Shown here piece after piece: positions 38,324 through 63,458 of a stretch of 64,000 bases of DNA. This DNA is from an uncultured Anaerolineales bacterium. GTDB lineage: Bacteria; Chloroflexota; Anaerolineae; Anaerolineales; UBA11858. Location: positions 38,022-102,021 of the forward strand of contig CAYZTL010000011.1 in the NCBI GenBank assembly GCA_964481465.1, in the 5' to 3' direction. The position numbers and the translations under genes are program-made. The notes below the pieces were generated by a model. It saw nothing but the letters and a program-made list of their open reading frames with translations. It was not told the DNA's origin and did not search any database. Positions within the stretch are counted from its first letter, which is position 1, and every line of letters starts with the position of its first letter.

Positions 38324-38413
38324 TCTTCTCCTCCTGATACGATTCCCTTGCCTGGATCCATTTAGAATCTACGCTAAAATAAATTCCATATCAAATAAAA
38401 CCCTCTCCTCTCT

Positions 38414-38818
38414 TTAACTAATAGCTTCTCCCTTCAATCTTTGTTTTTGATGGGTTTTCAAAAATTTTCGGACCCGAGGGTTCTCGTCCCACTGATTCAT
38501 GACCACATTCATGGTCAACCGAAGCAAAGAGATGTCCACTTCAAGCTGGCAAATAATGACCAACACCGCTTTCTTCAAATCCTTCAACACGACCCGTGAC
38601 CGCCCAAATACATATTCCACATCAGTATAATTATCACTTTCTGACTCTAGCGCAGCCAGGAATGGAAGGACCAGGTTTCCTATCTCCTGAATTTCATCAG
38701 GATGTAGATCTACCTTAGCCATCTCCCTTAATACATGACCTTGATTATCATATAACAGACATGCCTTAACATCTGCCACATCAAGGATTTCCACCAAACC
38801 CTCTTCCATTTGCTTCAA
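38414..38818 (-). CDS. Roadblock/longin-like small protein
   Basis: ILDVADVKACLLYDNQG.VL, V.Y.FG..RVVL..L...VLVIIC, D..LLRLT.NV pattern. Confidence 0.7.
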   Translation of the reverse strand: MKQMEEGLVEILDVADVKACLLYDNQGHVLREMAKVDLHPDEIQEIGNLVLPFLAALESESDNYTDVEYVFGRSRVVLKDLKKAVLVIICQLEVDISLLRLTMNVVMNQWDENPRVRKFLKTHQKQRLKGEAIS

Positions 38819-38828
38819 CCTCCACTCT

Positions 38829-39833: not shown

Positions 39834-39848
39834 TGCTCTCCTTGATTA

Positions 39849-41233: not shown

Positions 41234-44200
41234 CTACCACGCATCCGTTACCAGATGTACATTCCCCATGTAATTCAAAAAGCATAAAACTGGTTGGGGG
41301 CGCTGTCCGAGTAACTTCTCAGCCGCTAACACATATCTATTTACCTGGGTAAGATAATCCCCTTCCGTGAGAAGGCTGTCTAAATCCCGCCGGCTGTTGA
41401 TTTCATCCGTTTTGAATTCCACGAGGACCCAATCATGGCCTTTCTTGTAAAGCGCGTCGATCATCCCATGTTCATATTGTCCCCCCTCGACCTCCAAGCT
41501 GAAGGGGACCTCATGAAAACGAGAGTCCACTTCATCCATGCTTTGGAAGAGCGCTGTATTTTGAAAGGTGCGTAATATTTGAATGGTCTTTTCAACAGCG
41601 ATTTCAGCGAATGCTTCCCCGGTAAGTCCGCTGTTCCGAGCCTCCCCCATCGCCCAGGTCTTGAAGCGACCCCCATTTTGCCCAGGGAAAAACCATTCCG
41701 CCAATGCCTGGTGAACGAGTTTCCCGATCAACCAGGGCGGGGCTTTGAACCTTTTCCAATCCGGGACCACACGCCAAATCTGCCTTTCCCGTTCCCTCTC
41801 ATCAAGATCTTTTGCTTCTTCACTTGCCGGCAGCGGATCTAAGAGAGTGAGGTCTTCAGGGAAAGACTGGGGTGCCAAGATCGGTTTTCGCTGCGATTCA
41901 ACCTCCAGTTCTGCGTTCGGTTCATATACAAAACATTTAATAGAAGGAGAGTCTTCCCCAAAACAGATTACATGGACCTGATCTCCCTCCTCTTCATAAT
42001 CAATTTCATATTCACCCAAACCCAAAGGGCGACCCAGTTTCCTCAACCAGCCCGTTAAGCGAAACGGCGTGTTGTCCTTTTTTATTCCGCCCAAGACACC
42101 GGAGAGAATGAGTTTTTCTTGAGCCCTTGTTGCTGCTACGTAAAGCAACCGATCCGATTCAGCATCTTCCTCCTCTTCTTCACGGTCTCGTGCCATGCGG
42201 TATACAGCTGATCCCACATCCTGCACAAATTTTTCATCCCCAGCACCAGGCAGTGCCCGCTCATCACGCAAAGGAGGCACAACGCTAAATCGCTCGTCAA
42301 TGATCACATTCCGAGGGTTTGGTGTCCCTCGAGAAAGGTCGCCAATGATCACGAATGGAAATTCTAACCCTTTCGCTTGATGGACGGTCATAATCTGCAC
42401 GGCGCCAGATGAAACCGCTTGCGCTTCCCCCTCCCGGACGGAGACATCCCGCAACTCATCCACGTATGCCAGGAATTGACTTACACCCACCATACCGCTT
42501 TGATGCGCATCTGCCAGCAGTTTCCTTAGATTGGTAACGCTTCGGGTTTGCCCGGACCGAATGAGGGCAGCCAGATAATGGGTCCGATCCAAATAATCCT
42601 TAATGAGTTTCGCCACAGTAACCCGTCCCACCTTTTGGTGTAAGTCATTAAACCATGTGCGGACCCGACACGCCCTGTCTTTCTCTTCATCTAAAAAAGA
42701 CAGAGACCCTTCACAGAGAAGGTCATATAAAGATGGGAGTCCCTTCGCATACTGCGCCTCACGCAACCGGTACAGAGCCATATCGGAAAGACCTACTGCT
42801 GGTGAACGCAGAAATCCGGCCAAGGCCAAATCATCGTATGGATCAGCAAGAGCTCTTAGGGTGTTTAACACATCTCTTACCTCAGGTCGTTCGTAAAATC
42901 CACGCCCAGAAATGGTTAAAAATGGGATCCCCGCTTTTTCGAGAGCGTTCTCATAGGCAGGAAAAGAGGTGGATGCGCGACACAAGATGGCCACATCCCC
43001 ATAATCTAACGGCGATGGGTCCTTTTCTGAACCATCTCCATCCCAATTTTCTGTTCCCTCCACCAGATCTACCAATCGGCAGGCGATCGCCTGCGCAGCC
43101 TTTTCTAGCATTCCCCCAGTTTTGCTTCCTACGGTTAAATGCAATTCTACGAAAGGCGGTTCCACCCCCGGTCTGGGCTGCTCCCTAACCGGCTTGAGGG
43201 GTTCAAAAGGGGCAATGAACTTTCTCTGGGGATCGGCTTCACCTAAGACTGGTTCCAGGAGCGCGTTCAAATCCGCGATTAATTTCTCGTGGGCTCGATA
43301 GGAGGCAGCCAAATGATATCCATCCCCTCGGCGCCGGATCTGTTCTTCCTCATCCTGAAAGACAGCTACATCCGCCCCCCGGAATCGGTAGATGGATTGT
43401 TTCCCATCCCCGACGATAAACAATTTCCCTTGATCCCCGTTGAGCATGTCCATCAAGTCCCGCTGCCGACGATTGGTGTCCTGAAATTCATCCACAAGAA
43501 GCGCTTGGATCTGTTCCTGCCAATAAGTCCGGACATCTCCGTTTCCCATCAATAAAGACAAAGCCTTCCCTTCCAAATCATCAAAATCCAGGGCGCCGAT
43601 CTGAACTTTCTTCTTGGTATAGATACGTAAAGCATGCTGGTACAACCGGTATAAGGCGGGGAGGATCTCATGGGCTAATCTCCGGTCCAGGCTCATATCC
43701 AATCCATTTTTAACCAAAGGCTCTACATGCTGGTCATAAATAGCCTGAATCCGTTTGATATCCTGTTTCGGTTGGGCGGGAGCCCAATTTTCCTGCCGCC
43801 CTTTTTGTTTTAGGGAATCACGCAGAGGCGCTAAATACCATGAAACACGAACCCAATCCCTCGCGTCCTTCGACTTTAGAATGCGTTCCCAAAACATCAA
43901 CCCTCGCTCCAGATCCGGGGCAAGGGCATCCCCCGCCGCTTTCGCTTTTTGAAGCGTGCCGTCCTCCTTTAATTTCATGAGTTTTGCAAAGTGTTCGCGA
44001 ACCTCAGGATCCTCAAGAAACGTTTGTAAAGGCCTGATGATTTCCGTTTTCCATGCAGCCCAAACGTCGTCTGGGGTTTTTTGAATCGCTTGATCCACGT
44101 CAAGCCGCTTTTCCAACAAACGCCGCAATATGCGGCGTAACTCCCTCGCTCCGAAAGTGGAGAATAAACTCACCGTGTGCAGATCATCTACCGCCCATCC

Positions 44201-44662
44201 TAAAGCTTCCTCAACCGCTTGAGATTGCAATAAAGCCATCTCCCCTTCTTCAATCATCTCAAAAGCTGGGTCCACCCCGCTTTCGGCAGGGTGATGGCGG
44301 AGGATATCTGCACATAAGGTATGGATGGTGCTGATTCGGGCAGCGTCCAAACCATCGTAGATATCCCGCCAACGGCTTCTTTCCTGCGGTTCGAGGTCAA
44401 CTTGATGGAGAAACGTTCTCACCTCTTCCCGGACCCGATTGCGCATTTCCCGCGCTGCTTTTTTGGTAAAGGTGATCGCCACCACAGATCGTAAAGGTAA
44501 GCCATCTACGAGAAGGGCCAGAAATCGGGCGACGAGGGTTCGCGTTTTACCAGTCCCTGCCCCTGCGGTAACCACGACATCTTTCCCACGAGACAATATC
44601 GGACCTCGTTGTTCGGGGCTGGGTGACATCTGCTCCAAAATGGGATGTAGGTTTTGGGGCAT
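41234..44662 (-). CDS. addA: AddA-like UvrD helicase/PD-(D/E)XK nuclease
   Basis: AGAGTGKT, AITFTKKAA.EM..R, LLVDEFQDT, VGD.KQSIY.FRGAD, MTVHQAKGLEFP, LLYVAATRA, GMIDAL...VEFKT. ATG 44662 follows GGAG. Confidence 0.93.
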   Translation of the reverse strand: MPQNLHPILEQMSPSPEQRGPILSRGKDVVVTAGAGTGKTRTLVARFLALLVDGLPLRSVVAITFTKKAAREMRNRVREEVRTFLHQVDLEPQERSRWRDIYDGLDAARISTIHTLCADILRHHPAESGVDPAFEMIEEGEMALLQSQAVEEALGWAVDDLHTVSLFSTFGARELRRILRRLLEKRLDVDQAIQKTPDDVWAAWKTEIIRPLQTFLEDPEVREHFAKLMKLKEDGTLQKAKAAGDALAPDLERGLMFWERILKSKDARDWVRVSWYLAPLRDSLKQKGRQENWAPAQPKQDIKRIQAIYDQHVEPLVKNGLDMSLDRRLAHEILPALYRLYQHALRIYTKKKVQIGALDFDDLEGKALSLLMGNGDVRTYWQEQIQALLVDEFQDTNRRQRDLMDMLNGDQGKLFIVGDGKQSIYRFRGADVAVFQDEEEQIRRRGDGYHLAASYRAHEKLIADLNALLEPVLGEADPQRKFIAPFEPLKPVREQPRPGVEPPFVELHLTVGSKTGGMLEKAAQAIACRLVDLVEGTENWDGDGSEKDPSPLDYGDVAILCRASTSFPAYENALEKAGIPFLTISGRGFYERPEVRDVLNTLRALADPYDDLALAGFLRSPAVGLSDMALYRLREAQYAKGLPSLYDLLCEGSLSFLDEEKDRACRVRTWFNDLHQKVGRVTVAKLIKDYLDRTHYLAALIRSGQTRSVTNLRKLLADAHQSGMVGVSQFLAYVDELRDVSVREGEAQAVSSGAVQIMTVHQAKGLEFPFVIIGDLSRGTPNPRNVIIDERFSVVPPLRDERALPGAGDEKFVQDVGSAVYRMARDREEEEEDAESDRLLYVAATRAQEKLILSGVLGGIKKDNTPFRLTGWLRKLGRPLGLGEYEIDYEEEGDQVHVICFGEDSPSIKCFVYEPNAELEVESQRKPILAPQSFPEDLTLLDPLPASEEAKDLDERERERQIWRVVPDWKRFKAPPWLIGKLVHQALAEWFFPGQNGGRFKTWAMGEARNSGLTGEAFAEIAVEKTIQILRTFQNTALFQSMDEVDSRFHEVPFSLEVEGGQYEHGMIDALYKKGHDWVLVEFKTDEINSRRDLDSLLTEGDYLTQVNRYVLAAEKLLGQRPQPVLCFLNYMGNVHLVTDAW

Positions 44663-44676
44663 AAGGTGCGTTCTCC

Positions 44677-47600
44677 CTACCAATTTCTGGGCGTATAATG
44701 CCAGCAAAAATTCGCCGCTGGACAATACTCCGGACATCGATCATCTGGTACCCGGGGGACATAATTCCCTTTGCGCGCGCCGAAGATGGCCTTCCAAGAT
44801 TCATTTACGGAAACCTCCATCGCCGCCCGGGGTCCTCTCTTCCCTTGGTGATAGAACCGTTTCAATTGGAAATTGCTCGGTTCTGCATGTTGAACGTGAA
44901 AATAAAAACCGTCCCGCACCTTTCCCAACTGTAAGGCTTTCTCCGCAGCCAGGGCGTAAAGGGAAAGCTGGACTTTCTTCCCCTCTTGGACTGCTTTATT
45001 ATGGAAACCATAAGGGCCGCTGGTTTTATAATCGATGATCCGCAAGCCTCCCTCTTGATCTCTGTCCACCCGGTCTATATATCCCCGCAAACGAAATCTG
45101 TCCCCTTTCGGACCCTCTACCTCCAAAGGGGGCCCTTCACTGTCTTGAATCCCGAATGTTTTCTCTGCCCGGAAAAACCCAAACGAGAGATCTAAACTCT
45201 CCAGCACCTCGATAGATCGGGCTACATTTGCTTTGATTTCCTGCCGTGTTTGCTGCCACCAGGCTGTCTCTCGAAACCCTTCTCGTCTGGGAGCCTGATC
45301 CAATACCCAATCTGCAACTTCCGGCATTTGTCCTCGCAAATTTTTAAGGGAAGGGTTTTCTCCCACGGATTGATAAAGCCGTTCAAAGATATGGTGGTAT
45401 ATGTTCCCCAATTGTCTTGCGTCCAACCCTTCTTGGGGAGGTTCTCTGGGCTCCAAACCTAAAACATGGCTGGTGAAAAAGAAATATGGACAAGTTTGAT
45501 AACTCTCTAAACGACTCGCGCTCCAGATGTGATCTGGACTAAAACGCTCTCTAAACACCGCTCCTTGGCGATCCAAAGACCCGTCATACAAACCAGCTTT
45601 AGAACGGTTTTCCGGGTCTCTTTCCATTAATATATTTTCTGCCTGTAAAATCGAATCCGCCATTTCCGTTTGTCGACTCCGGAAGGCGATCCACACCGCT
45701 CCATCTTTGGGGCAGGAGCAAATCGATTGGGATAATTCACCCCAGGAAGCAGAATCTTTCAACCCTGGTTTGCTAGATGTGGTTAATTCTTGCGGTTCTA
45801 CCACTACCCGCCGCCGGACCTCTTCCCAGTAGGGGGAAGGCTGCCAGGGTGCTCCGTTGTCTGCAATCCGCGACCGGGTGAACAGCAAAGCTTGGCTGGC
45901 CCGGGTAAGGGCCTCATAAAAATATTCACCTTCCCAACTCAATGTGGATGCAGAAAGAGGGAGATTGCAGCGATCCCTCAAATCACCCCGGTCGACATCT
46001 CGCAGAAAGGGGTCTTCGCGCAATGTGGTAGGAAATTCACCTTCCCCCAAACCCAAGATGGCCACGGCTTTGAAAGGGACACCCCGGGCTGCCACGACAT
46101 CCGCTGCCAGAATTCCCCGCTCCCTTTCCCATTGAGACGGCTGATATGTGGCCCCTTCTACAGCCCGGAGGAACTCATCCAGAAAGGTACCATAAGACAC
46201 AGGAGATGTTCCTACAGTCCTTTCCGCCCACACCATCCCACGCAGGATTTCTTTGAACTGCCTTAACGCCTCTAGGTCCCGTTCCGCTAAACCGTTTGAG
46301 CTTTCAGCGACACAACGCACCAGGTTTAGATCGGTTTTTATCCCATCCCCCTCCTCCTCATCGCCAATGATCCCTTCTACCCAGGCGACGAAATCCCGAT
46401 ACGCATGTTTCCCTTTTGGTGGTTGAATGCGCGCCGCGAATCGAGCAAATTTCTTTCTCAACAATTCAGCTTCCTGTCCTTGGGGAAACCTCTGAGGAGG
46501 TTCAGGGTATTCTTCGTCTTTGGTTTCTCCCCGCAAAGTTTGCTTCCCTAAAATCCCGAAAGCTTCCTCCCACTGGTCCAAGCCCCGAATAACCCTTCCC
46601 CAACGAGCGACCCAAGACAATCTCTCTGCATCCATTTCTTCGATGCCTATGGGCGCATCTGCGTCATCAGTGGGGTAAGCATCCTGCCATTCGAAATAGG
46701 GTGACCGCCAGGACTCTATGGTTTCCCGCCAGGGCAGGTGTTCATCTTCTTTATTGGCAATTTGCAGCAAGTTTACAAGGGCAGCTATGGCTGGGTTTTC
46801 CGCCAAAGACCTGCCTTCCTCAACATGCATTGGTAGACCAAATTCATCCGCTGTTTGGTAAAGGAAAGAACGATATGGTTCAAAGTCCCGAAACAATATC
46901 GCCGTCTGATAAGGTTCCCATCCGTTTTGGATGATCTTCTTTTTCAACCACCGCAAGGCGTTCCGCACCTCCCCTTCCCGATCCGGTGCGGCAATCATGG
47001 AAACCGAACTCCCTCCTTCGATTCTCCCTTCCCCTTCTCGGAAAAGGCTCCTTTCCAGATGCCGGATGGGGGAAGCAAGTGAGTTTCCTTTGCGGGGATC
47101 CAGGATAGTTATGTTCTTGATATTCAAAACACTTTCCAACTCTTCTCTGGTTCGTTGAAACCGTTTATGCACCACAGGGCGAGAAGCTCGATCATTTTCT
47201 CCGCTAAGGGTGATGATCAACTCCGGGATGCGCTTCCCTAACTCACCCAAGATCTGGATCTGCACGGGCGTGAAATCATCAAAACCGTCCACGATGAGTG
47301 GTGACCAACCTGGTGGGATCTCTACCTCCCCCTGTAAAGCTTGCAGGGTTAACCAACCGGCGCCGATGTAATCCATCCACCCTTCCTGCTGTAAGCGCCT
47401 TTGATAAGCCTGGTATATCTCCCCAATCTCTGCCAGCCTTCGTCCGCTTTTTATGCTTTTGACAGCAGACTGAAAGTCCTCCGGAGTGATCCCGCCTGCT
47501 TTCAGTTCCCGGATGACATCCATTAGTATTTGCATGAAACCAGGCAAATCCTGTATGCTCCGGTAATATTCAAGAGGAAGATCCTCCACAACATTTCTCA

Positions 47601-47868
47601 GTACGCGTCTTTGGACTGGCTCCGATAAGCGGGTGAGAATCTTGCCGCTCCGGAACATGATGTCCGTATACAAATCATCGAAAGTCCCCACATGGACACC
47701 TAATGCACCGCCTGCAGATGCCAACCTCCGCTCCCAAGATTGGGCTTGTAAACGGGTAGGCACGATCACGCGCGGTGTGGATCTCAAATCCCGTGCAGCG
47801 TCCCGGGCAACTTTCAGAACATACTCAGTTTTGCCAGCCGCTGCTGGGGCGATGATTAACCGGTTAAT
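44677..47868 (-). CDS. addB: AddB-like PD-(D/E)XK nuclease subunit with an Fe-S staple; probable ATT start
   Basis: N-terminal APAAAGKT, WSASRLESY..CPY.FF, G.IYH...E, RGYIDRVD..IIDYKT, QL.LY, C-terminal CPEYCPAANFC. The frame extends 5' of TTG 47787 to ATT 47868. Confidence 0.9.
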   Translation of the reverse strand: MNRLIIAPAAAGKTEYVLKVARDAARDLRSTPRVIVPTRLQAQSWERRLASAGGALGVHVGTFDDLYTDIMFRSGKILTRLSEPVQRRVLRNVVEDLPLEYYRSIQDLPGFMQILMDVIRELKAGGITPEDFQSAVKSIKSGRRLAEIGEIYQAYQRRLQQEGWMDYIGAGWLTLQALQGEVEIPPGWSPLIVDGFDDFTPVQIQILGELGKRIPELIITLSGENDRASRPVVHKRFQRTREELESVLNIKNITILDPRKGNSLASPIRHLERSLFREGEGRIEGGSSVSMIAAPDREGEVRNALRWLKKKIIQNGWEPYQTAILFRDFEPYRSFLYQTADEFGLPMHVEEGRSLAENPAIAALVNLLQIANKEDEHLPWRETIESWRSPYFEWQDAYPTDDADAPIGIEEMDAERLSWVARWGRVIRGLDQWEEAFGILGKQTLRGETKDEEYPEPPQRFPQGQEAELLRKKFARFAARIQPPKGKHAYRDFVAWVEGIIGDEEEGDGIKTDLNLVRCVAESSNGLAERDLEALRQFKEILRGMVWAERTVGTSPVSYGTFLDEFLRAVEGATYQPSQWERERGILAADVVAARGVPFKAVAILGLGEGEFPTTLREDPFLRDVDRGDLRDRCNLPLSASTLSWEGEYFYEALTRASQALLFTRSRIADNGAPWQPSPYWEEVRRRVVVEPQELTTSSKPGLKDSASWGELSQSICSCPKDGAVWIAFRSRQTEMADSILQAENILMERDPENRSKAGLYDGSLDRQGAVFRERFSPDHIWSASRLESYQTCPYFFFTSHVLGLEPREPPQEGLDARQLGNIYHHIFERLYQSVGENPSLKNLRGQMPEVADWVLDQAPRREGFRETAWWQQTRQEIKANVARSIEVLESLDLSFGFFRAEKTFGIQDSEGPPLEVEGPKGDRFRLRGYIDRVDRDQEGGLRIIDYKTSGPYGFHNKAVQEGKKVQLSLYALAAEKALQLGKVRDGFYFHVQHAEPSNFQLKRFYHQGKRGPRAAMEVSVNESWKAIFGARKGNYVPRVPDDRCPEYCPAANFCWHYTPRNW

Positions 47869-48041: not shown

Positions 48042-48205
48042 CAGGTTAGTATACAGTACTTCCATTTCTATCACAGCCAGGTCTTGCTCCTTTGCGGAAA
48101 AGATCTTGCTGCTCTGATCCGTTTCATTGATTGGTAAACCAAAATAAATCAACATATAGATGGAAAACCCCGGCCTATCCTTGGGGTTTTTTCTGGAGGT
48201 GGATG

Positions 48206-49474
48206 ATGGCTGGCAATCGCTATACGAAACTCCTTTTGGTTGGACTGACCCTCTTCTTTGCCATCCTGGCTTGCAATATACCCCAAGAAGAACTCTCTGC
48301 ATCGCCGGTCACAGAAGAAACCCGACCAAGCGAAGGAGGGGAAGCAAACGAGGAAACACTCACTCCCGATGAAGACCAAGGGGCTCCGCTGACCTCTACT
48401 CCTTCCCTCACACCTACGATCACTCTTACTCCCACGATCACCCTCACCAGCACCCCAGAGGTGCCCATGGCCAGTGTGACCATGAACACGAACTGCCGTT
48501 CGGGGCCCGGTAAGGATTACCAGAAATTGGGGGTTCTCCTGGTGAGAGAGGAAACCGAGATCGTTGGGATCGGCAGCACGGGATATTACTACATCGTCCG
48601 CAATCCCGATAAGCCAAATCAGGTATGTTGGTTGTGGGATAAATATGTAGAGGTACACGGGAACATCGAGGGGATTCCAAAGATGACCCCGCCACCCAGC
48701 CCAACTCCTATCCCGACTATCTCCTATCAGATCACCCCGGAAAGACTTATCAGCTGCGGTCCAACTGAATACATGGTGTATTGGGTCGGAAACGACGGGG
48801 AAACGGCTTTAGAATCAGCGGAGGTGAAAATCAAGAACCTCGATACCTCGACGACCATCTTCGGGCCCGGTCACACCGATGCCCCTTTCACTCCTAACGT
48901 TACCTCCTGCCCACCGGGATTTGACACCCTGGGACCGGGCGGCGCAGCTTATATGGCTATTATGGTTAATCCCCCACCTAACGCTTTAGAAAAAATCCGC
49001 GCAACCGTGAAAATTTGCTCCCAGAATGGGTTAGGGGAACCCTGCTTGACCAAGCAGGTGGATTGGGAGAATGTTGCCATCTCCGATCGTAACAAAAAAA
49101 CGGATATCACCCCCATCGCTCCCCAAGATGTGCTGGACAAGGTCGCTTCTCTGCCCATCTCATCCTGGAGCTACCAGTACGATGATCCATCCATCCGTCA
49201 CATCGGTCCTATGGCCCAGGACTTCTACCGTCTTTTCCAGGTAGGTGACAATGACACGCTCATCCATGGCATAGACGCATACGGTGTTTCCTTGGCTGCC
49301 ATCCAGGCCTTAAACGAACACATGGTGGATATGGAATCTCGTCTGACAGCTCTAGAAAAACAAACCTCCCCGTCCTTAACCCCACAAGTCCCTTGGTGGA
49401 CCTTACTTTTCGTTCTATGCGCAGGTTTGTGTTTAGGTGCCCTTGGATACCGCTGGTGGAGTCAACGATCCTAA
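48206..49474 (+). CDS. Lipoprotein with SH3-like domain, Peptidase_S74/ICA autoprocessing chaperone domain, coiled coil and C-terminal TM anchor
   Basis: Lipobox ILAC; NCRSGPG.DY..LG.L; SDRNKK, HIGPMAQDF, GVSLAAIQAL; TM WWTLLFVLCAGLCLGALGY plus RWWSQRS. GGAGGT RBS. Confidence 0.88.
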   Translation: MAGNRYTKLLLVGLTLFFAILACNIPQEELSASPVTEETRPSEGGEANEETLTPDEDQGAPLTSTPSLTPTITLTPTITLTSTPEVPMASVTMNTNCRSGPGKDYQKLGVLLVREETEIVGIGSTGYYYIVRNPDKPNQVCWLWDKYVEVHGNIEGIPKMTPPPSPTPIPTISYQITPERLISCGPTEYMVYWVGNDGETALESAEVKIKNLDTSTTIFGPGHTDAPFTPNVTSCPPGFDTLGPGGAAYMAIMVNPPPNALEKIRATVKICSQNGLGEPCLTKQVDWENVAISDRNKKTDITPIAPQDVLDKVASLPISSWSYQYDDPSIRHIGPMAQDFYRLFQVGDNDTLIHGIDAYGVSLAAIQALNEHMVDMESRLTALEKQTSPSLTPQVPWWTLLFVLCAGLCLGALGYRWWSQRS

Positions 49475-54450: not shown

Positions 54451-54804
54451 ATGAACACCTATTCGATGTACTCTCCCCGTTTGGATACGACAGTAGCCAC
54501 GAGACCGGATCAACCCAGTGAGGGCCTCAACCGCTTGATTGCTGCCGCTGTCATCAACCAAAACTTCTGTGATTCGCTGCTCAACACACCCGAATTAGCC
54601 TTGGAAAACGGCTACTTCGGAGAGCAATTCAATCTTGAGGATCACGAAGTGGGTCTAATCCTATCTATCGAGGCGGATAATTTAAGTGATTTTGCCAACC
54701 AGGTCGTTGAACGAGGACATGAAGAATTTGAATACCGACGAGTCAGTGGAAGCAGCTGCTGGGTCCCAGCGGAACCAGCCATGGTCGTCATGGATCCGAA
54801 CTGA
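54451..54804 (+). CDS. Small protein resembling NHLP-clan (Os1348/Franean1_4349-like) leader domains
   Basis: LNRLIAAAVINQNFCDSLLNTPELALENGY.G..F.L...E..LI.SI; AAGGAG RBS. Confidence 0.7.
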   Translation: MNTYSMYSPRLDTTVATRPDQPSEGLNRLIAAAVINQNFCDSLLNTPELALENGYFGEQFNLEDHEVGLILSIEADNLSDFANQVVERGHEEFEYRRVSGSSCWVPAEPAMVVMDPN

Positions 54805-56755
54805 CTTTGACACCCTTTCATATGATCATGGGGATCGCTCCCCGTCCATCCCTGTTGCAATCTGGATGATTGACCGCCAGGGTCAATTCACCCTGTCAGA
54901 AGGTCATGGCCTTGCTGACTTGGGTTTGGAACCGGGTGAAGTGGTTGGCAAATCCATCTACGACCTTTACGCAGATGTCCCCCAGATTTTAGAGTGTGTC
55001 AAGCGGGCCCTAAACGGGGAAACAGTGGAAGCTACAATCCAGGCGGAAGATACACACTGGAACGCGTATTATTACCCCACCCGGAATGCCAAGGGGCGGA
55101 TTACTGGAGTTATCGGCGTGGCTTTTAACAACTCCAAAGAACACGAACTACTACGGAGACAAGAGTTGTTAATGGATCTCGCGGCCACGTTGCGCTCCAT
55201 AAACACCCGAAAAGAAATGCCCGCCAAAGTCCTTGAGAAATTGGTGGATTTGTTCCATGCCCAGGGAGCCATGATCCTCTCTCGTTCTCCATCCAATCAC
55301 GGTTTGGAAATCGAAGAATGTTCAGGGATAGAGGATCTCCTGCAGGGAAAAACAATCAATTTAGATGATTACCCCTGGTTGCTTGATAGATCTGAACAAA
55401 TCATATCCACCGCTCAACCCCATCTTGATGAGCAGATCTCAGAGCAGCTCCCCTTTATCCATGGCGCTCAGGCCATTGCCGGTGTCCCCATTTCTGGGAG
55501 AGATAAGATCATTGGGGTGATCTGGGTTTTGCGCGATCAGCCGCTCAACAAAATGGAATTGGGTTTGTTGACTGAAGTGGGTGAGATCACAGGCATTTCT
55601 TTCCATCAAGCAGAACAATACGAACAAACGCAACGGCGTCTCCATCGCCTTTCTGCCCTGCATGCCATCGATCAAGCGATCACGGGAACGTTTGATCTTA
55701 ACGTCACGCTCAATGTCATTCTGGATCAGGTCGTCACCCAATTAGAGGTGGACGCGGCTGACATTTTCCTTTATAAGCCAAAAACCCACAACCTCGAGTT
55801 CGGAGAGGGACGAGGATTCAATCACACTGACAGTTCCCACCAGCAAGTCAGAGAACGAGTGGGACTGTTATGGCAAGTAGCCCGCGAACGAGCCTTGGTT
55901 AACATCCCCAACCTGCCCCACCGCACACAGACCTTTGTTCGCCGCTCATTGATTGAGGAGGAAGGGTTTGTTACTTACTTTGGGATCCCTTTAATCGCCA
56001 AAGGTGAGATCAAAGGGGTCTTGGAGGTTTTCCATCGTAAGTCTCTTGAAATCGACAAAGAATGGATAAGCTTCTTTAAGACACTGGCCAATCAAGCAGC
56101 TATCGCGATTGATAATGCAGCCCTCTTCGAAGACCTGCGAAAGTCGAACATGAAACTCGATCTGGCTTATCACTCCACCCTTGAAGGCTGGGTCCATGCC
56201 TTGGATTTGCGTGATGAGGAAAGCCAGGGACACACGAAACGGGTAACGCAGCATACGCTGCGTTTGGCCAAAGCTATGGGGATAAACGGGGAGGATTTGG
56301 TACACATCCGCCGCGGGGCCCTGCTCCATGATATCGGAAAGCTGGCAATCTCAGATGACATTCTCCACAAAAAAGGCTCATTGACTGAAGAGGAATGGGA
56401 ACAGATCAAAAAACACCCCCTTTACGCTCAGGAAATGCTGTCTGAAATTGAATTCTTACATCCTGCCTTGGATATCCCGTACTGCCATCATGAAAAATGG
56501 GACGGTTCGGGGTACCCGCGTGGATTAAAAGGAGAAAGGATCCCTCTTGCAGCTCGTATATTCGCCGTCATCGATGTCTGGGATTCATTAACCAACGACC
56601 GACCCTACCGCAACGCCTGGTCTGAGAAAGAAGCCATCCAATACATTTTGGAACATATCGGAACGCACTTCGATCCCAACGTGGTAGAAACCTGGATGGA
56701 AGTGTTTGACATCGAACCTCCCGAGGAGGAAATCTTAGAAGACCTCTTTCGATAA
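54719..56755 (+). CDS. PAS-GAF-GAF-HD-GYP phosphodiesterase (start uncertain)
   Basis: PAS (IDRQG.F..SEG.GL..LG...VVGKS), GAF domains, RDEES.GH..RV, GALLHDIGK, HHEKWDGSGYP, DRPYR. Confidence 0.9.
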   Translation: MKNLNTDESVEAAAGSQRNQPWSSWIRTDFDTLSYDHGDRSPSIPVAIWMIDRQGQFTLSEGHGLADLGLEPGEVVGKSIYDLYADVPQILECVKRALNGETVEATIQAEDTHWNAYYYPTRNAKGRITGVIGVAFNNSKEHELLRRQELLMDLAATLRSINTRKEMPAKVLEKLVDLFHAQGAMILSRSPSNHGLEIEECSGIEDLLQGKTINLDDYPWLLDRSEQIISTAQPHLDEQISEQLPFIHGAQAIAGVPISGRDKIIGVIWVLRDQPLNKMELGLLTEVGEITGISFHQAEQYEQTQRRLHRLSALHAIDQAITGTFDLNVTLNVILDQVVTQLEVDAADIFLYKPKTHNLEFGEGRGFNHTDSSHQQVRERVGLLWQVARERALVNIPNLPHRTQTFVRRSLIEEEGFVTYFGIPLIAKGEIKGVLEVFHRKSLEIDKEWISFFKTLANQAAIAIDNAALFEDLRKSNMKLDLAYHSTLEGWVHALDLRDEESQGHTKRVTQHTLRLAKAMGINGEDLVHIRRGALLHDIGKLAISDDILHKKGSLTEEEWEQIKKHPLYAQEMLSEIEFLHPALDIPYCHHEKWDGSGYPRGLKGERIPLAARIFAVIDVWDSLTNDRPYRNAWSEKEAIQYILEHIGTHFDPNVVETWMEVFDIEPPEEEILEDLFR

Positions 56756-56844
56756 GTAAGATTTCTGGGTTTACAGGTTGAAACCCCACCTATTAAAAAA
56801 ATAAAATAAACCGCACTATCACCCTCGCATCCATTGCATTCTTC

Positions 56845-57687
56845 ATGATTAGACAAAAAACATCCACCCCAAAGAAATTCCAGGAAAGGAGTTCAGCGTA
56901 CTCTTCTCTCAAAATATCCCTTATCTACGTGATCCTTGGCATTGCCTGGATACTGTTCTCAGATACCATCGCTCTCGTCATTTTTCAACAGGATGTTGAC
57001 CGCCTCTCATCCATCCAAACCTTTAAAGGAACGCTGTACGTGGTTACGACCGCGGTGGTCCTTTTCATCCTCATGGAGCGAGATTTCCGAAAGATCAATC
57101 AATCCCAGCAAGTGTTGAAGGATAGTTATCACGCCACGCTAGGAGGTTGGGTCCAAGCGCTCCACCTGCGTGATGAAGAAACGCAAGAACATACACAGCG
57201 CGTGATCGAAGATTGTATAAAACTGGCAAAAGCAATGAAGGTAGACGAGAAATCGCTCATTCATATCCGCCGTGGAGCGCTTCTCCATGACATTGGCAAG
57301 TTGGGCATTTCCGATGACATATTGATGAAATCGGGTGCGCTTACCCCCGAAGAAAGGAAAATCATTGAGTTGCACCCTGTGTTTGCCCGGGATTTGATCC
57401 GTGATATCGAATTTCTCCAACCTGCGTTAGCTATCCCCTACTGCCATCACGAGAAATGGGATGGCAGTGGATACCCCCAAGGATTGCAGGGCGAGGAAAT
57501 CCCCCTTGAAGCGCGGATCTTTGCCGTCATCGATGTCTGGGATGCCTTGACCAGTGATCGCCCTTACCGCGATGCCTGGACCGACAAAGAAGCGGAACGG
57601 TATATCCTGGAACAATCCGGAAAACACTTTGATCCCCAGGTAGTGGATACCTGGCAGAAAGTTTTCCAGATTTCCAACCACACATAG
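56845..57687 (+). CDS. Membrane-bound HD-GYP phosphodiesterase
   Basis: Two TMs (WILFSD, QTFKG), RDEETQEH..RV, GALLHDIGK, HHEKWDGSGYP.GL.GEEIP, DRPYR. Confidence 0.92.
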   Translation: MIRQKTSTPKKFQERSSAYSSLKISLIYVILGIAWILFSDTIALVIFQQDVDRLSSIQTFKGTLYVVTTAVVLFILMERDFRKINQSQQVLKDSYHATLGGWVQALHLRDEETQEHTQRVIEDCIKLAKAMKVDEKSLIHIRRGALLHDIGKLGISDDILMKSGALTPEERKIIELHPVFARDLIRDIEFLQPALAIPYCHHEKWDGSGYPQGLQGEEIPLEARIFAVIDVWDALTSDRPYRDAWTDKEAERYILEQSGKHFDPQVVDTWQKVFQISNHT

Positions 57688-57972: not shown

Positions 57973-58329
57973 ATGGAAAAACGCTTCAAGGTGCTTCGCA
58001 CCATCGGAAAGATTTATAAGATCTTGGGGATCATTGCGGCTGTCTTCACGATCCTTACTGCACTCGGCATATGTGCGTTAAGTGTACTTGGTACAGCTAC
58101 AATGAGTCGTTACGCTCAGGAATGGGGAGGAACTCCCATGCCCATCGGGGTGAGGGCATGGGGTACAATAAGCGGCGTTATCGGCGGTCTGATTATCATC
58201 TTTATTGGAGCGATGATCACAGTTACATTTTATGGTTTAGGGGAAGGTGTGGAACTGCTGATAGCCCTGGAGGAGAACACCCGGAAATCCGCTGACCTGC
58301 TGAATGAGATGGGTTCCTCAACCGAATAA
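57973..58329 (+). CDS. Two-TM membrane protein (DUF4282-like)
   Basis: KRF..LR.IG.IYKILG, C-terminal E...LLIALEENTR; GAGGAGG RBS. Confidence 0.8.
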   Translation: MEKRFKVLRTIGKIYKILGIIAAVFTILTALGICALSVLGTATMSRYAQEWGGTPMPIGVRAWGTISGVIGGLIIIFIGAMITVTFYGLGEGVELLIALEENTRKSADLLNEMGSSTE

Positions 58330-58355
58330 AACCGTTCGCCGCCCGGAGGTCATCT

Positions 58356-59420
58356 TTGAAAATTGCCATCAGCGCCGATCACCATCTTACCACGCAGGAA
58401 ACGCATCCGGAAAGATTCACAGCGATGGAGGATATCCTCCATCGCTGTGCTGACACCGGGGTCGACCTCTTGATCATTGCTGGAGACCTATTTGATCAAA
58501 CCAACCCCCATTATGCTGATTTTGAAGATCTCTTCCGCGAACACTGTCCCCCAGACCTGCTTACCTACATCCTCCCTGGAAACCATGATGTGGGATTGAG
58601 CGGAGATGCCCTAACCTTGGAGGATGTCAATGTCTATGCGAATCCAACCCTGGTTTCACCTCTGGAGGATGGACCCCAAATCCTCCTTCTCCCCTATCAA
58701 GCGGATGCTACTATGGGAGAAGAGATCGCACCCTTTGCGGAAGACCTCACCGCCCACCATTGGCTGTTAGTCAGCCATGGGGATTGGACCCGCGGTCAGA
58801 AATACCCCGACCCCTATGAACCGGGCCTGTACATGCCCCTTACCCAAACTGACTTGGATACCTATAAACCCCGGAAAGTCTTTCTGGGGCACATCCATCG
58901 ACCCATGGACCAGGCTCCCATCCATTATTCGGGATCCCCCTGCCCGTTAAACATCACGGAAACCGGCTTGCGGCGCTTCTTGACCTATGATACGCAGAGT
59001 GGAGAGGTCACTTCTCACTTGGTGAACAGCCCTTTGCTCTACTTTCAAGAAACCTTCTTGGTCTTCCCTGTAGAGGATGAGGTCGCTCATCTGAGCGAAC
59101 AAATCTCAGACCGGGTTCAATCCTGGGACCTACCGGAAGGATGGGAGGATAAGGTCCAGATTCGAGTCACAGTCACCGGCTACACTCGTAACCGAGCTGC
59201 CATTAAAGAGACAATAATCAAGGGATTTGAACCGTACTCATTCGTTGAAGACCAAGGACCAGATCTTTCTGAATTGAAACACTCGCTAGACCCCGATCGA
59301 GCCCATATCGCCCAGCAAGTGAAAATCTGGGTGGATGATCTAGAATGGGCAGACAGCCCTCGCCAGCCGGATAAAGACCAAATTCTCGCTGAAGCCCTGA
59401 AAGCCATCTATGGAGCCTGA
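58356..59420 (+). CDS. SbcD/Mre11/YhaO-like metallophosphoesterase nuclease
   Basis: ADHH, AGDLFD, PGNHD, SHG, LGHIH, YSGS motifs. Confidence 0.9.
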   Translation: MKIAISADHHLTTQETHPERFTAMEDILHRCADTGVDLLIIAGDLFDQTNPHYADFEDLFREHCPPDLLTYILPGNHDVGLSGDALTLEDVNVYANPTLVSPLEDGPQILLLPYQADATMGEEIAPFAEDLTAHHWLLVSHGDWTRGQKYPDPYEPGLYMPLTQTDLDTYKPRKVFLGHIHRPMDQAPIHYSGSPCPLNITETGLRRFLTYDTQSGEVTSHLVNSPLLYFQETFLVFPVEDEVAHLSEQISDRVQSWDLPEGWEDKVQIRVTVTGYTRNRAAIKETIIKGFEPYSFVEDQGPDLSELKHSLDPDRAHIAQQVKIWVDDLEWADSPRQPDKDQILAEALKAIYGA

Positions 59421-59422
59421 TC

Positions 59423-61519
59423 ATGCCCGTGTGGATTGAACGCCTTAATGTCGAAAATTTGGGGCCCATAAGCGAGCAGTTATTCGCCTTTGACCGCTTT
59501 AACCTGATATATGGCGCCAATGAGACCGGGAAAACGTTCCTGGTCGAATTCTTACTTCGCTCCCTTTTCCGCCATGCATCCAAATGGTCTTTGCGAGATT
59601 TGCCCGGGCGTGGAAAGGTCTCTCTGCGGGGTTTAAATGAAGAGTTCGTGGATTTCACACCGGGCAGTCGGAAAAAATTGGAGGATTATTGGGAAGAGGA
59701 TGAAAACGGTCTACCTGCAAACATGGCTCAATTGTTGGTGGTCAAAGGGGGCGAGTTAGACCTCTCCAGAAAAACTCCTGGAGGTGTGGGTCGAGCGGTC
59801 CTTAAAACCGCCCTTTCCCGGGAGACGCTTTTGGATCAAATTTTAGAGTCGATTCGACAAACGGTCCAAAACGCTGAGATCCGGGAAGGAGAAATCATCG
59901 CTGACCGGAGGGCGAAGAATGTTAAACGGAGAGAAGAGCTGAGGGAAAACCTGCGTAAAATGGAGAACATCCAGGATCAGGTGGAGAAAAAGTACTCTCG
60001 AGGTCCCATCCGCACTTTAGAACTCAAATTAGAAAACGTGCAATCCTCCCTTGCAGAACAACAGCGCGCCAAACGGTATCGAGCGTATCAACTGCAAAAA
60101 GAAAGGGAAGAATGGGAGGAGAAACGAAAAAACTTGCCCGATCAAAAAATCGAAGTGCTGCGCGATCACATCCGTGATTACCAACAAACCAAAAAAACCC
60201 TTCTCGATAAAAAGGAACAGCTCCAAGAAAAAAAGGAAGCCAGCCAACATTATCTGTGGCTGAAAAAGGCGGTAGAGACCTGGGAAAGCCAGGACCTCGA
60301 TCGGAGCGGACAGCCGAATCGCATCTTTATGATCGGGGGCTTCCTGCTTATCATAACCGGTTTGGCTTTAATCTTCTTCCAACAACCTGCGCTTGTGCTG
60401 GTTCCCTCTTCCTTAGGCATACTCAGTTTGGCCTATTACTTCTGGCGCTTCCACCGCTGGTCAACTTCCGCAGCTCAATCCCAGGAGCGGGAAAACATCC
60501 AAAAAACTTACCAAGAACATTTCGGAAATACCCTCCGCGGTGTCGCAGAACTCAAAGCCCGCTTGGAAGCAATCCAGGAAACTCACATCAAAGCCGAACA
60601 GATCCAGAAAGACATTGAAGGCTTAGAGAATCAGAAAAAGTCCCTCTCCAATCACATCCAATCTCAATTTCAAGACCTCATAGGGGAGGAAGTTGAGGAA
60701 GAGGATTGGCAAGAGGAAGTGACCACCCTGCGCGAAAAGGCAAAAGAGCTCAATGAAAATATCAAAGACTTGGAATTGGAATCCCGTGCATTAGGTGTGG
60801 CAGAAACTGAATATCGCTCTCAACCTGCTGGTGTACCATATCAAGAACGGAAATTGGAGGATTTGAAGAAGAGAAGAGAAGAAATCAAGGCGGACATCCT
60901 GGCTGCTGAGGACAAACTTAACAATTTAAAGCAAAGCATCTGTACGTGGACTGGAGACGACATCAATACACCTTGGAATAAAGCCCTGGAACATTTACAA
61001 GATGAGTATAGGCGGTTGCGGAAGGACTACAAACAACTCACAGCGGAGATCGTGGCCAAAATCGGGGTCACCCAGGTTCTTGAACAGGTCAGAGAGCAAG
61101 AAGACGAGAAAATACGCCAAGGTCTGCGTTCAAAAGAAGTGATCGAGATCTTAGAATCGGTGACAGAGGTTTATCAATCCCTGGATCTAGCTGGTGAGCA
61201 GGTTCTGGTAAAAGGTGCATATGGCGATTACCCGTTGCGCGAATTGAGCACCGGCGCCCAAGAACAAATCCTGTTGGCCCTGCGCATGGGATTCGCTTCC
61301 CGGTTTGGTGGTGGTCAACCCCTGTTCATGATCCTGGATGATGCCTTCCAGCATTCCGATTGGCAGCGACGGGAGCGGTTAGTGAAGAAAGTGATCCACT
61401 TCGCGAAAAACGATTGGCAGGTCATTTACCTGACCATGGACGATCACCTCCGGGACCTTTTCCGGGAAGCAGGCGAAAGACTATTCCCGAAGCATTTTAC
61501 TTTCCACGAATTGATATAA
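59423..61519 (+). CDS. Rad50/YhaN-like SMC ATPase with an internal TM hairpin
   Basis: GANETGKT Walker A, coiled coils, two central hydrophobic helices, LSTGAQEQ signature, ILDDAFQHSD Walker B/D-loop. Confidence 0.9.
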   Translation: MPVWIERLNVENLGPISEQLFAFDRFNLIYGANETGKTFLVEFLLRSLFRHASKWSLRDLPGRGKVSLRGLNEEFVDFTPGSRKKLEDYWEEDENGLPANMAQLLVVKGGELDLSRKTPGGVGRAVLKTALSRETLLDQILESIRQTVQNAEIREGEIIADRRAKNVKRREELRENLRKMENIQDQVEKKYSRGPIRTLELKLENVQSSLAEQQRAKRYRAYQLQKEREEWEEKRKNLPDQKIEVLRDHIRDYQQTKKTLLDKKEQLQEKKEASQHYLWLKKAVETWESQDLDRSGQPNRIFMIGGFLLIITGLALIFFQQPALVLVPSSLGILSLAYYFWRFHRWSTSAAQSQERENIQKTYQEHFGNTLRGVAELKARLEAIQETHIKAEQIQKDIEGLENQKKSLSNHIQSQFQDLIGEEVEEEDWQEEVTTLREKAKELNENIKDLELESRALGVAETEYRSQPAGVPYQERKLEDLKKRREEIKADILAAEDKLNNLKQSICTWTGDDINTPWNKALEHLQDEYRRLRKDYKQLTAEIVAKIGVTQVLEQVREQEDEKIRQGLRSKEVIEILESVTEVYQSLDLAGEQVLVKGAYGDYPLRELSTGAQEQILLALRMGFASRFGGGQPLFMILDDAFQHSDWQRRERLVKKVIHFAKNDWQVIYLTMDDHLRDLFREAGERLFPKHFTFHELI

Positions 61520-61831
61520 TCTTCCCCCTAAAAGAAAACGCATTTCCGCCATGATCCAAAATAAAGAAACAGATCTCCCTTTCTAAAAACTGAAGATTTT
61601 TCCGCCGCGGTTCCAATATCTGGTTCTCATTGAAAACCCATACAATCCCCTGGATAAACAGCCTCCAATCGGCCAAATCAAAAAGACTTAAAAAATGGTA
61701 AAACCTTATCTCCGTAAGAAAAAACATGCTACAATCCAGTGGAAAGGAAAAGATTTCCGAGAAAAAGAAATGAGATGTTTGACCTTGGAATCTATGGGTC
61801 GAAATTTCTTGATTAGGGAGGTTACTTGCAA

Positions 61832-62014
61832 ATGTCGAACGTCGGCAGAAAAAAAGCAATCACGGTGATCTTAATTTTCATTTTCTCTACAATCCTCGCG
61901 AGTTGCACAAATACAGGGCTGAGTTTCTTAGATGATGTCTACGATACAATTTGCTGCTTTTCCCCGGCGATGATTTTGACGCTGGGTATTGTCGCCCTCT
62001 CTTTCCATAAATAA
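61832..62014 (+). CDS. Mini-lipoprotein 1 (lipobox LASC, CCFSPA motif, C-terminal hydrophobic helix)
   Basis: GGAGG RBS; signal peptide II; paralogous to the next ORF. Confidence 0.8.
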   Translation: MSNVGRKKAITVILIFIFSTILASCTNTGLSFLDDVYDTICCFSPAMILTLGIVALSFHK

Positions 62015-62089
62015 GTTGGCTAATGTACTCTTGCTGGTTGAAGACCATAGAAAAATAAACTTTCATTCATCCTATGTAGGAGGTTATCT

Positions 62090-62272
62090 ATGAAAAAGAG
62101 AGCTGGAATATTGGCGTTGATGATCACGCTGGTGGCATTTTCTGCACTCACCCTCACCGGATGTGTCATGGATCAATTTGGCGAAATGTTCGCAGATTGT
62201 TGCTTTTCACCGGCCATGATATTGCCACTAGGATTCTTGGCCTTAGCTTTTTATAACCGATATACGCCATAA
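62090..62272 (+). CDS. Mini-lipoprotein 2 (lipobox LTGC, CCFSPA motif)
   Basis: GGAGG RBS; CCFSPAMIL identical to copy 1, with 4 synonymous codon differences. Confidence 0.82.
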   Translation: MKKRAGILALMITLVAFSALTLTGCVMDQFGEMFADCCFSPAMILPLGFLALAFYNRYTP

Positions 62273-62547
62273 TCCATTCCGTCCCCTCTCATATTGTCAT
62301 CGCACCCCGAGGAGAAGTAACAATTGGGGACCTTTTATCGTTTAAACTTAAAATCCATCCTCCCCTTTCTTCGGTATTGGTTTGGATGACTACGTCAGGA
62401 CATTTCTCTTTGTTCAAGTCGCCAAACCAAATCAGATATATTTACAACACATGCGAATCCGAGTAAATGACTTACCCAAATATGATCCAAACTGATTGAG
62501 ATAACATCAAAATTTCTGAAACCTTAACGCAGATAAGGAGATTGCAG

Positions 62548-62724
62548 ATGAAGACGAAAGCCATAAAAGCATTCATTGTCTTGAACTTGGCGTTTCTTTT
62601 TTCACTGCTCCTCACCAGTTGTTCAGATTATGACTTCTACGAGTGTTGGGGGCCAGGGTGTTGGACACCTGCAATATCCCTGGTATTCATCGTCCTGACC
62701 GTTTATGGCCAACGTAACATATAA
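62548..62724 (+). CDS. Mini-lipoprotein 3 (lipobox LTSC, C-WGPG-CWTPA motif)
   Basis: AAGGAG RBS; same architecture as copies 1 and 2. Confidence 0.75.
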   Translation: MKTKAIKAFIVLNLAFLFSLLLTSCSDYDFYECWGPGCWTPAISLVFIVLTVYGQRNI

Positions 62725-62819: not shown

Positions 62820-63458
62820 ATGGAATATCTTGACGCCATCCTTATCCCCGGTGGTGGATTGAGCAAAACAGGGCGTCTCCATCCCTGGACGAAAGCCAGG
62901 TTAGACGTGGCTTTAGAGCATGACCAGAATAAGGTTATATATCTGTTATTAAGCGGGGGAACCGTACACAAGCCGCCGCCTTTAAATGAAGATGGATTCC
63001 CCCTATTTGAATCCCGTGTCGCTGCCGAATATCTCATTGATAAGGGCGTCCAGGCGCAGCGCATCCTGACGGAAATCAGCTCGTACGATACAATTGGGAA
63101 CGCTTTTTTCTCCCGGATGATTCACATCCAACCCCGGAAGTTCCAGAATCTGCTTGTAATCACTTCCCAATTCCATCTGAAAAGGGTTCAAACGGCATTC
63201 CACTGGGTTTACAGCTTGACCCCCCTCCCCATCCCCTTTCGAGTTTCCATTAAATCCTCGCCCAATCAAGGCTTGAGCGGGAAATTACTGCAAGCCAGAA
63301 AAGCGAAAGAGAGCCGGAGCCTTAAATCATTGCAAAAACTCACCCAAGACATCCACACTTTGCAAGAATTTCACCGCTGGTTTTTCACCGAGCATGCGGC
63401 CTATGCTGTGGGAAAAATCCCGGATCGGCTTCAGGGAAATATTACGGATTCGTACTGA
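62820..63458 (+). CDS. YdcF/DUF218 (ElyC-like) protein
   Basis: DAILIPGGG, LLSGG, ES.VAAEYL, E..SYDTIGNA, VITS.FH..R. Confidence 0.88.
   Translation: MEYLDAILIPGGGLSKTGRLHPWTKARLDVALEHDQNKVIYLLLSGGTVHKPPPLNEDGFPLFESRVAAEYLIDKGVQAQRILTEISSYDTIGNAFFSRMIHIQPRKFQNLLVITSQFHLKRVQTAFHWVYSLTPLPIPFRVSIKSSPNQGLSGKLLQARKAKESRSLKSLQKLTQDIHTLQEFHRWFFTEHAAYAVGKIPDRLQGNITDSY

Follow-up and report, generated by a model that had tools for sequence, protein, structure and literature searches.

A tandem array of small predicted lipoproteins with a conserved cysteine motif in Anaerolineales

The stretch of DNA analysed here, 64,000 nucleotides from an uncultured Anaerolineales bacterium (positions 38,022 to 102,021 of contig CAYZTL010000011.1, assembly GCA_964481465.1; hereafter the window), carries three consecutive paralogous genes for proteins of about 60 residues, and raises the question of what such proteins, with a lipoprotein-type signal at one end and a cysteine-led hydrophobic segment at the other, could be doing at the membrane. 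A first-pass annotation, made from the sequence alone, had read them as mini-lipoproteins with variable acidic cores, doubly anchored or doubly lipidated, which might display a hypervariable loop. The explanation that accounts best for the evidence gathered since is that of doubly anchored micro-lipoproteins with a thiol site at the membrane interface, a reading which we put forward tentatively, as somewhat short of probable. The three genes and their ribosome-binding sites, the latter read directly from the sequence, are located in the window as follows.

61832–62014, forward strand: copy 1, predicted pre-lipoprotein of 60 amino acids, with orthologues in 13 other contigs
61815–61821, forward strand: purine-rich ribosome-binding site of copy 1, AGGGAGG, 10 nucleotides before the ATG
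62090–62272, forward strand: copy 2, predicted pre-lipoprotein of 60 amino acids
62078–62083, forward strand: ribosome-binding site of copy 2, AGGAGG, 6 nucleotides before the ATG
62548–62724, forward strand: copy 3, predicted pre-lipoprotein of 58 amino acids
62535–62540, forward strand: ribosome-binding site of copy 3, AAGGAG, 7 nucleotides before the ATG

In the upstream alignment, purine-rich sequences resembling a Shine-Dalgarno (SD) element occupy the same position in the relatives of copy 1, and the ribosome-binding region of copy 3 (TAAGG.GATTGC.GATG) is kept in contigs L007 and L016. The elements that the first-pass annotation had pointed out in the DNA, namely three open reading frames (ORFs), ribosome-binding sites, lipoboxes, cores, Cys motifs and four synonymous sites, all read as claimed. 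The latter are the differences (tgc/tgt, tcc/tca, gcg/gcc and att/ata) between the segments of copies 1 and 2 that encode a shared CCFSPAMIL, and the purifying selection on the peptide that had been proposed from them is borne out by the ratios of nonsynonymous to synonymous substitution rates (dN/dS) between orthologues, which ranged from 0.15 to 0.51 where measurable (dN 0.07–0.6, synonymous sites being mostly saturated). The ratio was 0.18–0.47 for copy 1, 0.15–0.51 for copy 2, with dS saturated in most pairs, and 0.23 for copy 3 compared with its orthologue in L007. Antisense ORFs overlapping the mini-genes have no frame common between lineages which, together with the low dN/dS values, indicates that the forward-strand frames are those under protein-level selection. 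When the published G+LPP lipoprotein pattern was applied to all six-frame ORFs of at least 50 amino acids, trying all possible start codons, the three copies were the sole matches in the 64-kb window. Judging from these sequence data, copies 1 to 3 are very probably real, expressed small membrane proteins with the layout described below. Copy 3 itself (window 62548–62724) differs from its counterpart in L007 (4108–4290) by a dS of 0.71, versus 0.13–0.16 for copies 1 and 2 in the same two genomes; faster evolution and recombination are possible causes.

A profile of the three copies retrieved six further proteins of 58–63 residues, so that the refuting outcome which the first-pass annotation had named for itself, an absence of homologues, did not materialise; orthologues scored E-values of 1e-12 to 1e-29 in profile searches. 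Orthologues at this same locus are present in about ten other contigs of Anaerolineales. When 1.84 billion protein representatives were searched exhaustively with HMMER, about seven genuine clusters emerged, all of 58–73 residues, to which a wider profile added few more. Three other sequences from this search (P0013–P0015) were rejected as members, being repetitive sequences with a chance CCFSP word. At the DNA level, a scan of one genome per species in 185,579 species, using a pattern built from 11 sequences, confirmed two species, both represented by Anaerolineales metagenome-assembled genomes (MAGs), and 241 million JGI metagenome records added two more loci. The 53 pattern matches obtained in 596 Gb compare with a rough chance estimate of about 30, and the confirmed CCFSPA[MAV][IFL]L relatives lay at this locus only. 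One carrier MAG bears the isolate label GSL_GB14_7, and the sample label GSL_GB14 is that of a metagenome study of Great Salt Lake (PMC8506154); that lake is the source of at least one carrier genome. A mobile origin was also considered and set aside, no relatives having been found among the viral contigs or in the plasmid collection searched.

Altogether 28 intact members were collected; lipobox rules were tested on 23, and family-library scans and alignment were carried out on 18. Many further copies, recognised by reading the DNA around the matches, are absent from the gene calls of the source assemblies, in keeping with the fact that small membrane proteins are under-called and under-studied. 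Neither copies 1 to 3 in the Pfam, NCBIfam and PADLOC scans nor the 18 members in the Pfam and NCBIfam scans gave anything above threshold, the PDB profile search returned no family at threshold, and the literature on the motif string CCFSPA yielded no relevant paper. The first-pass annotation was thus right in stating that no described family matches: the family was undescribed before, and its only known carriers are a handful of Anaerolineales genomes and metagenome contigs.

Layout of the predicted proteins

The signal region opens with a basic N-terminus, residues 1–10 of which include 2–4 Lys or Arg, and continues with a hydrophobic core and a lipobox of the consensus [LFI]-[TSAM]-[GS]-C, whose Cys stands at residue 25 or 26. 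Under a rule for signal peptidase II (SPII) substrates that combined a basic n-region, an uncharged h-region and a lipobox Cys within residues 15–35, the G+LPP pattern was present in 20 of the 23 members and the PROSITE PS51257-type pattern in 21. Besides, NCBIfam returned weak matches to the signal regions of other small lipoproteins (LptM, entericidin A, YqiH and Cor). The lipobox is followed by a linker of 9–15 residues, a Cys motif, an uncharged span of 16–20 residues that starts at this motif and usually contains L-P-x-G, and a tail of 2–11 polar or basic residues, basic residues being found at both ends of the protein. In the window, the three copies are built in this way:

Copy 1: signal peptide, residues 1–24; lipobox LASC, Cys25 at 61904–61906; amphipathic linker TNTGLSFLDDVYDTI; CCFSPA at 61952–61969; uncharged helix of 18 residues; tail HK
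Copy 2: lipobox LTGC, Cys25 at 62162–62164; linker VMDQFGEMFAD; CCFSPA at 62198–62215; uncharged span of 19 residues; tail NRYTP
Copy 3: lipobox LTSC, Cys25 at 62620–62622; linker SDYDFYE; variant motif CWGPGCWTPA at 62644–62673; uncharged span of 18 residues; tail QRNI

Cys25 and one Cys of the motif are invariant in all 18 aligned sequences, and 22 of the 28 intact members have the complete CCFSPA unchanged. The variant found in copy 3 belongs to a type of its own, C-x-G-P-G-C-[WF]-[TS]-P-A, which its orthologues in L007 and L016 display as C[LW]GPGC[FW][ST]PA; the third copy of L011 has C-G-L-S-P-A and a poor lipobox, and the most distant member CC-G-A-T-A-L-P. From the signal region, the family is likely to consist of SPII lipoproteins, and a second membrane anchor made up of the C-terminal uncharged helix and its basic end is plausible. 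In the mini-lipoprotein family originally proposed, paralogy and lipobox have therefore held, and the double anchor may.

The same features could be read in another way, as uncleaved two-helix membrane hairpins resembling a miniature MerF, with both ends in the cytoplasm and an outer loop of 10–16 residues containing three Cys. Such a topology would leave no reason for a [LFI]-[TSAM]-[GS]-C sequence at the fixed residue 25 or 26 in nearly all members, nor for the likeness to other lipoprotein signal regions, and we regard it as unlikely, although it would accord with the positive-inside rule, given the basic residues at either terminus, and although MerF, a small protein with vicinal Cys pairs, is itself a hairpin of two helices. 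The AlphaFold2 model, obtained from a 9-sequence alignment, likewise consists of just two helices joined by a loop, but it is of low confidence (predicted local distance difference test, pLDDT, 66) and cannot represent cleavage.

Regarding the linkers, those of the three window paralogues differ strongly from one another, and from this difference the first-pass annotation had derived a hypervariable loop on display, possibly serving kin recognition, signalling or immunity. Comparison between lineages points to the opposite. In any one orthologue group, few parts of the protein are as well conserved as the linker, which has the consensus N[ST]G..F[LM][ND]DV.DT. for copy 1 across thirteen contigs and [VI]MDQF[GA][ER]xF[AN]D for copy 2 across eight lineages, whereas the flanking ATPase and DUF218 proteins in the same genomes are only 50–65% identical to those of the window. 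No polymorphic allele set was seen, and in spite of the faster divergence of copy 3 between the window and L007 (see above) the display of a hypervariable loop is scarcely credible; kin recognition and immunity lose their support with it. Acidity of the core, which had been taken as a shared trait, proved to be a local feature and not a property of the family, since the linker, with a net charge of −3 in the window, carries one between −1 and +1 in other genomes. The helical hydrophobic moment of the linker exceeds that of shuffled sequences in copies 1 and 2 (p ≤ 0.005).

A possible thiol site at the membrane interface

On the doubly anchored micro-lipoprotein reading, the precursor would cross the membrane by the Sec route, acquire a lipid on Cys25 and lose its signal peptide to signal peptidase II, leaving a mature peptide of about 35 residues on the outer face of the cytoplasmic membrane, held by its N-terminal lipid and by its C-terminal helix, the basic end of which would stay in the cytoplasm. 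The amphipathic linker would then lie along the membrane surface and place two adjacent thiols at the outer membrane interface, where the pair could either bind a soft metal or metalloid (Hg, Cu, Cd, As) or engage in thiol-disulfide exchange. In this manner the peptide might work as a surface buffer, a hand-off site or a sensor, similar to the Cys pair at the head of the first transmembrane helix (TM1) of MerT, MerF and MerE, and the paralogues might assemble with one another. Among the functions weighed, the best supported is a thiol site at the interface that either binds soft metals or takes part in thiol-disulfide chemistry, because it brings together a Cys motif that does not vary, the placing of this motif at the membrane boundary and a helix cap like that of MerF; by analogy, we consider this function possible, though doubtful. 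Two circumstances were also counted in its favour, the peroxiredoxin gene beside the distant member P0012 and the Great Salt Lake origin of one carrier.

The comparison with the Mer proteins deserves some detail. What is shared is a vicinal Cys pair, F-[ST]-P and a hydrophobic helix (CCFSPA.iLPlG here and CCFTPVLVILLG in MerF), and a Cys pair followed by x-x-Pro was indeed found at the start of an uncharged span of 18–20 residues. An hhalign alignment of 20 columns, covering MerF residues 19–38, paired tlCCFSPA.iLPlG with the MerF segment ALCCFTPVLVILLG (probability 70%). The NCBIfam model of MerF (NF033565) matched 4 of the 18 members at E=0.002–0.015 with 15–17 bits (15.2 and 16.9), and that of MerT (NF033560) matched 5 of the 18, with 11.5 bits shown. 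In MerT and MerE the Cys pair of TM1 is required for Hg(II) transport (PMC5715351). The differences are no less evident, as the mini-lipoproteins have no second Cys pair in any member, no second or third helix of the Mer type and no mer operon, and here it is a lipoprotein signal that precedes the motif, which would face outward. With respect to the known sequences, the likeness to Mer proteins is that of one shared motif, not of homology or membership.

Several observations weigh against the thiol site and against the use of the Mer proteins as its model. The NCBIfam matches stand far below the curated cut-offs (50 bits for MerF, 130 bits for MerT), the Pfam scans gave no match to the Mer families, and the PDB profile search found none to Mer at E ≤ 10. 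The likeness consists of the motif plus hydrophobic residues only, which inflate scores. In MerF, the motif presumably starts a helix entering from the cytoplasmic side, and its orientation in the membrane is probably the opposite in the mini-lipoproteins. Nor is the vicinal pair universal, for in copy 3 this place is taken by G-C, the other Cys lying five residues upstream, and in the third copy of L011 by C-G. The low confidence of the structural model, with its two helices, belongs here as well, and so does the genomic setting, given that metal-resistance, metal-regulator and thiol-redox genes are all missing from the conserved neighbourhood and that the Rfam scan showed no metal riboswitch in the leader.

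A narrower formulation would make these proteins a lipoprotein counterpart of the MerT/MerF Cys site, that is, an interfacial dithiol that captures or passes on soft metals (Hg, As, Cu, Cd) or senses redox state independently of any mer operon in Anaerolineales of habitats like Great Salt Lake, or else a processed Cys-led tail yielding a doubly lipidated micro-peptide; in either version it appears unlikely. If a metal or redox site were nevertheless to prove true, the family would represent a minimal extracytoplasmic thiol device, and the CC-x-x-P helix-cap motif would be in use outside mercury transporters. If the thiol reading is false, what is left is a lineage-specific family of accessory lipoproteins, of local interest. 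Wider impact is limited by the narrow distribution and by the lack of a cultured host. The lipobox, the second membrane anchor and the conserved vicinal Cys pair at the interface are features that can be tested separately.

Predicted promoter and neighbouring genes

Two further features adjoin the array:

61727–61735, forward strand: predicted extended −10 element TGcTACAAT, upstream of copy 1, invariant in five lineages
62820–63458, forward strand: YdcF-family DUF218 gene (Pfam DUF218, E=6.8e-18), directly downstream

The block ACATG.TA.AATCCA is invariant in the five-lineage upstream alignment, in regions otherwise poorly alignable. The TGcTACAAT element would constitute the array's own extended −10 promoter, with transcription starting near 61742 and a leader of about 90 nucleotides. 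A consensus scanner reported no full −35/−10 promoter at the array, and its only terminator-like sites fall inside coding sequence. A degenerate version of the copy 1 upstream block (ACATGCGAATCC) precedes copy 3, so that the duplication which produced this copy probably included the promoter region. The leader of copy 1 (61742–61834) folds better than shuffled sequences (z=−2.4, 1 of 200 shuffles being as good), with the SD element paired. Rfam searches of the leader and spacers gave nothing at gathering score, four matches (E 1–2.8) remaining far below it. The GTCCCC...GGGGAC hairpin after copy 2 was discarded as a candidate signal, being no more stable than shuffles (z=−0.84).

Gene order is maintained in the clade: a membrane protein of about 115 residues, a Metallophos protein, an SMC-like ATPase, the mini-genes and the DUF218 gene, with a GT87 protein and an ABC (ATP-binding cassette) exporter as further neighbours. 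In the window, the upstream trio (57973–61519) is formed by a 118-residue membrane protein, the Metallophos protein (58356–59420) and the SMC/SbcC-like ATPase (59423–61519). The latter, of about 697–698 residues, has its coiled coil broken by a membrane hairpin at residues ~303–339, and in the window it gave only weak LmuB matches in PADLOC. Together with the Metallophos protein it resembles a membrane-anchored pair of the SbcCD/YhaON type, and may be likened to YhaO/YhaN. On the other side, the DUF218 gene adjoins the array on the same strand in every genome that has the array at this locus, 50–100 bp from the mini-genes, and as a syntenic neighbour it may possibly be co-transcribed with them.

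Such an arrangement invites the idea that the micro-proteins are accessory subunits of a neighbouring product, either the SMC-like ATPase with its Metallophos nuclease or the YdcF/DUF218 protein, the more so as none of the clade members examined departs from the order Metallophos, ATPase, mini-genes, DUF218, the ATPase has a membrane hairpin of its own at its centre, and mini-genes and DUF218 share one strand at short distance. We find this improbable. All carriers belong to one clade, in which synteny may be inherited and not functional, and the array appears to have a conserved promoter of its own. Homologues of DUF218 abound in Anaerolineae (549 at E ≤ 1e-20), and a link to this gene as a requirement was rejected on finding that in other Anaerolineae its orthologues (~52% identity) are not preceded by mini-genes; its protein, in addition, lacks a signal peptide and any membrane segment. 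Besides, the distant member P0012 is found away from the DUF218 locus, in unrelated surroundings that include an adjacent peroxiredoxin gene. Taking into account the wide occurrence of DUF218 without mini-genes and the location of P0012 elsewhere, the neighbours are not required partners of the micro-lipoproteins.

Nearly identical repeats flank P0012 in L015 (~930–1120 and ~2455–2950), beside a split peroxiredoxin gene, which could be the outcome of a repeat-mediated insertion. No gene for a sortase-like, rhomboid or CPBP protein was found in the window neighbourhood. In a distant Anaerolineae contig devoid of mini-genes (L021, 5001–6602), the DUF218 orthologue is followed by a 53-residue ORF and a gene for an Rce1-like (CPBP) intramembrane protease. 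Elsewhere in the window, the following features were recorded:

35451–40949: three DUF4388 proteins (one with a receiver domain), a HAMP/4HB protein, a Roadblock/LC7 protein and a small Arf/Ras-like GTPase, a cluster that looks like an MglA/MglB-like polarity or signalling module
41234–47787, reverse strand: helicase-nuclease pair of the AddA/AddB type
48131–49474: protein of 447 residues with a Peptidase_S74 domain, typical of phage tail fibres, in a region otherwise of chromosomal appearance; Peptidase_S74 is the intramolecular chaperone of endosialidase and tail-fibre proteins
54686–57687: pair of HD-GYP-type (HD_5) proteins upstream of the array, one of which also contains PAS and GAF domains

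Turnover of the copies and comparison with other families

Array content varies from genome to genome, with two to three copies in each and some of these pseudogenes, as follows:

Window and L007: copies 1, 2 and 3
L011: copies 1 and 2 and a divergent third copy
L001: copies 1 and 2 and a degenerate remnant of a third copy (outside the 28 intact members)
L016: copies 1 and 3
L006, L008 and L013: copies 1 and 2
L004: copies 1 and 2, with a frameshifted extra copy between them
L019: copy 1 intact, copy 2 a pseudogene

The array is an accessory locus which, from the sequences compared, evolves by birth and death, with gain, loss and pseudogenisation of copies between close relatives. The damaged copies differ in kind. 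In L019 (4515–4915) the lipobox Cys of copy 2 has become Tyr and CC has become PC, in addition to a frameshift; the frameshifted extra copy of L004 lies at 5747–5924; and the degenerate third copy of L001 (2575–2724) is without a signal peptide.

A dispensable, fast-turnover locus of this sort, as suggested by the variable copy number and the pseudogenes, would suit a set of entericidin-like or type I toxin-like peptides, in which one paralogue damages the membrane and another neutralises it, as toxin and antidote or in competition. Like ecnA and ecnB, the genes of entericidins A and B, those described here are tandem paralogues, whose products are SPII lipoproteins of very small size in which the mature segment is amphipathic. 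The resemblance to entericidins weakens at the level of families, as the Pfam model Entericidin (PF08085) found no match at E ≤ 10 and the NCBIfam model EcnA (NF007319) only weak ones in 2 of 18 members, the best with E=0.041. Moreover, entericidins lack both the C-terminal membrane helix and the conserved Cys motif that is invariant here, the locus is chromosomal, syntenic and vertically inherited (flanks of the lineages being 50–90% identical), and the phage and plasmid collections searched contain no copies. A toxin/antidote set is, in our view, rather improbable.

Likeness to the C-terminal sorting signals CGP-CTERM and MYXO-CTERM had been part of the first-pass annotation. It resides in the three-part layout of the extreme C-terminus, i.e. 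a Cys-led motif, a hydrophobic helix and a short basic or polar end, to which the helix-breaking Pro and Gly conserved in the helix may be added; on this model, cleavage of the tail and attachment of a lipid to the Cys would produce a peptide of about 15 residues with two lipids. Sorting signals of this class, however, are carried by many larger and unrelated secreted proteins in each genome and are served by a dedicated enzyme, whereas here only proteins of about 60 residues at one locus are concerned. None of the homologues exceeds the 58–73 residues given above, and no larger protein with the same tail emerged from hidden Markov model and word-index searches, an absence that counts weakly against a sorting signal since a tail-only match could not reach significance and might be missed. 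Nor did the genome and metagenome scans find confirmed relatives beyond this locus, with matches in numbers not far from the chance estimate given above. Among the sorting-domain models only VPDSG-CTERM matched (E=0.39 in NCBIfam, 6.4 in Pfam), and none of the candidate processing enzymes, sortase-like, rhomboid or CPBP, is encoded nearby. The sorting-signal interpretation was not supported by this comparison and is very improbable.

Finally, the micro-lipoproteins share with SPII lipoproteins in general the basic n-region, the hydrophobic core and the lipobox with its Cys at residue 25 or 26, and depart from them in a mature part of only about 35 residues and in a predicted second anchor at the C-terminus, which is unusual for a lipoprotein. 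They constitute a new sequence family of a familiar kind, that of small lipoproteins and membrane proteins, set apart by its unusual second anchor and thiol motif.

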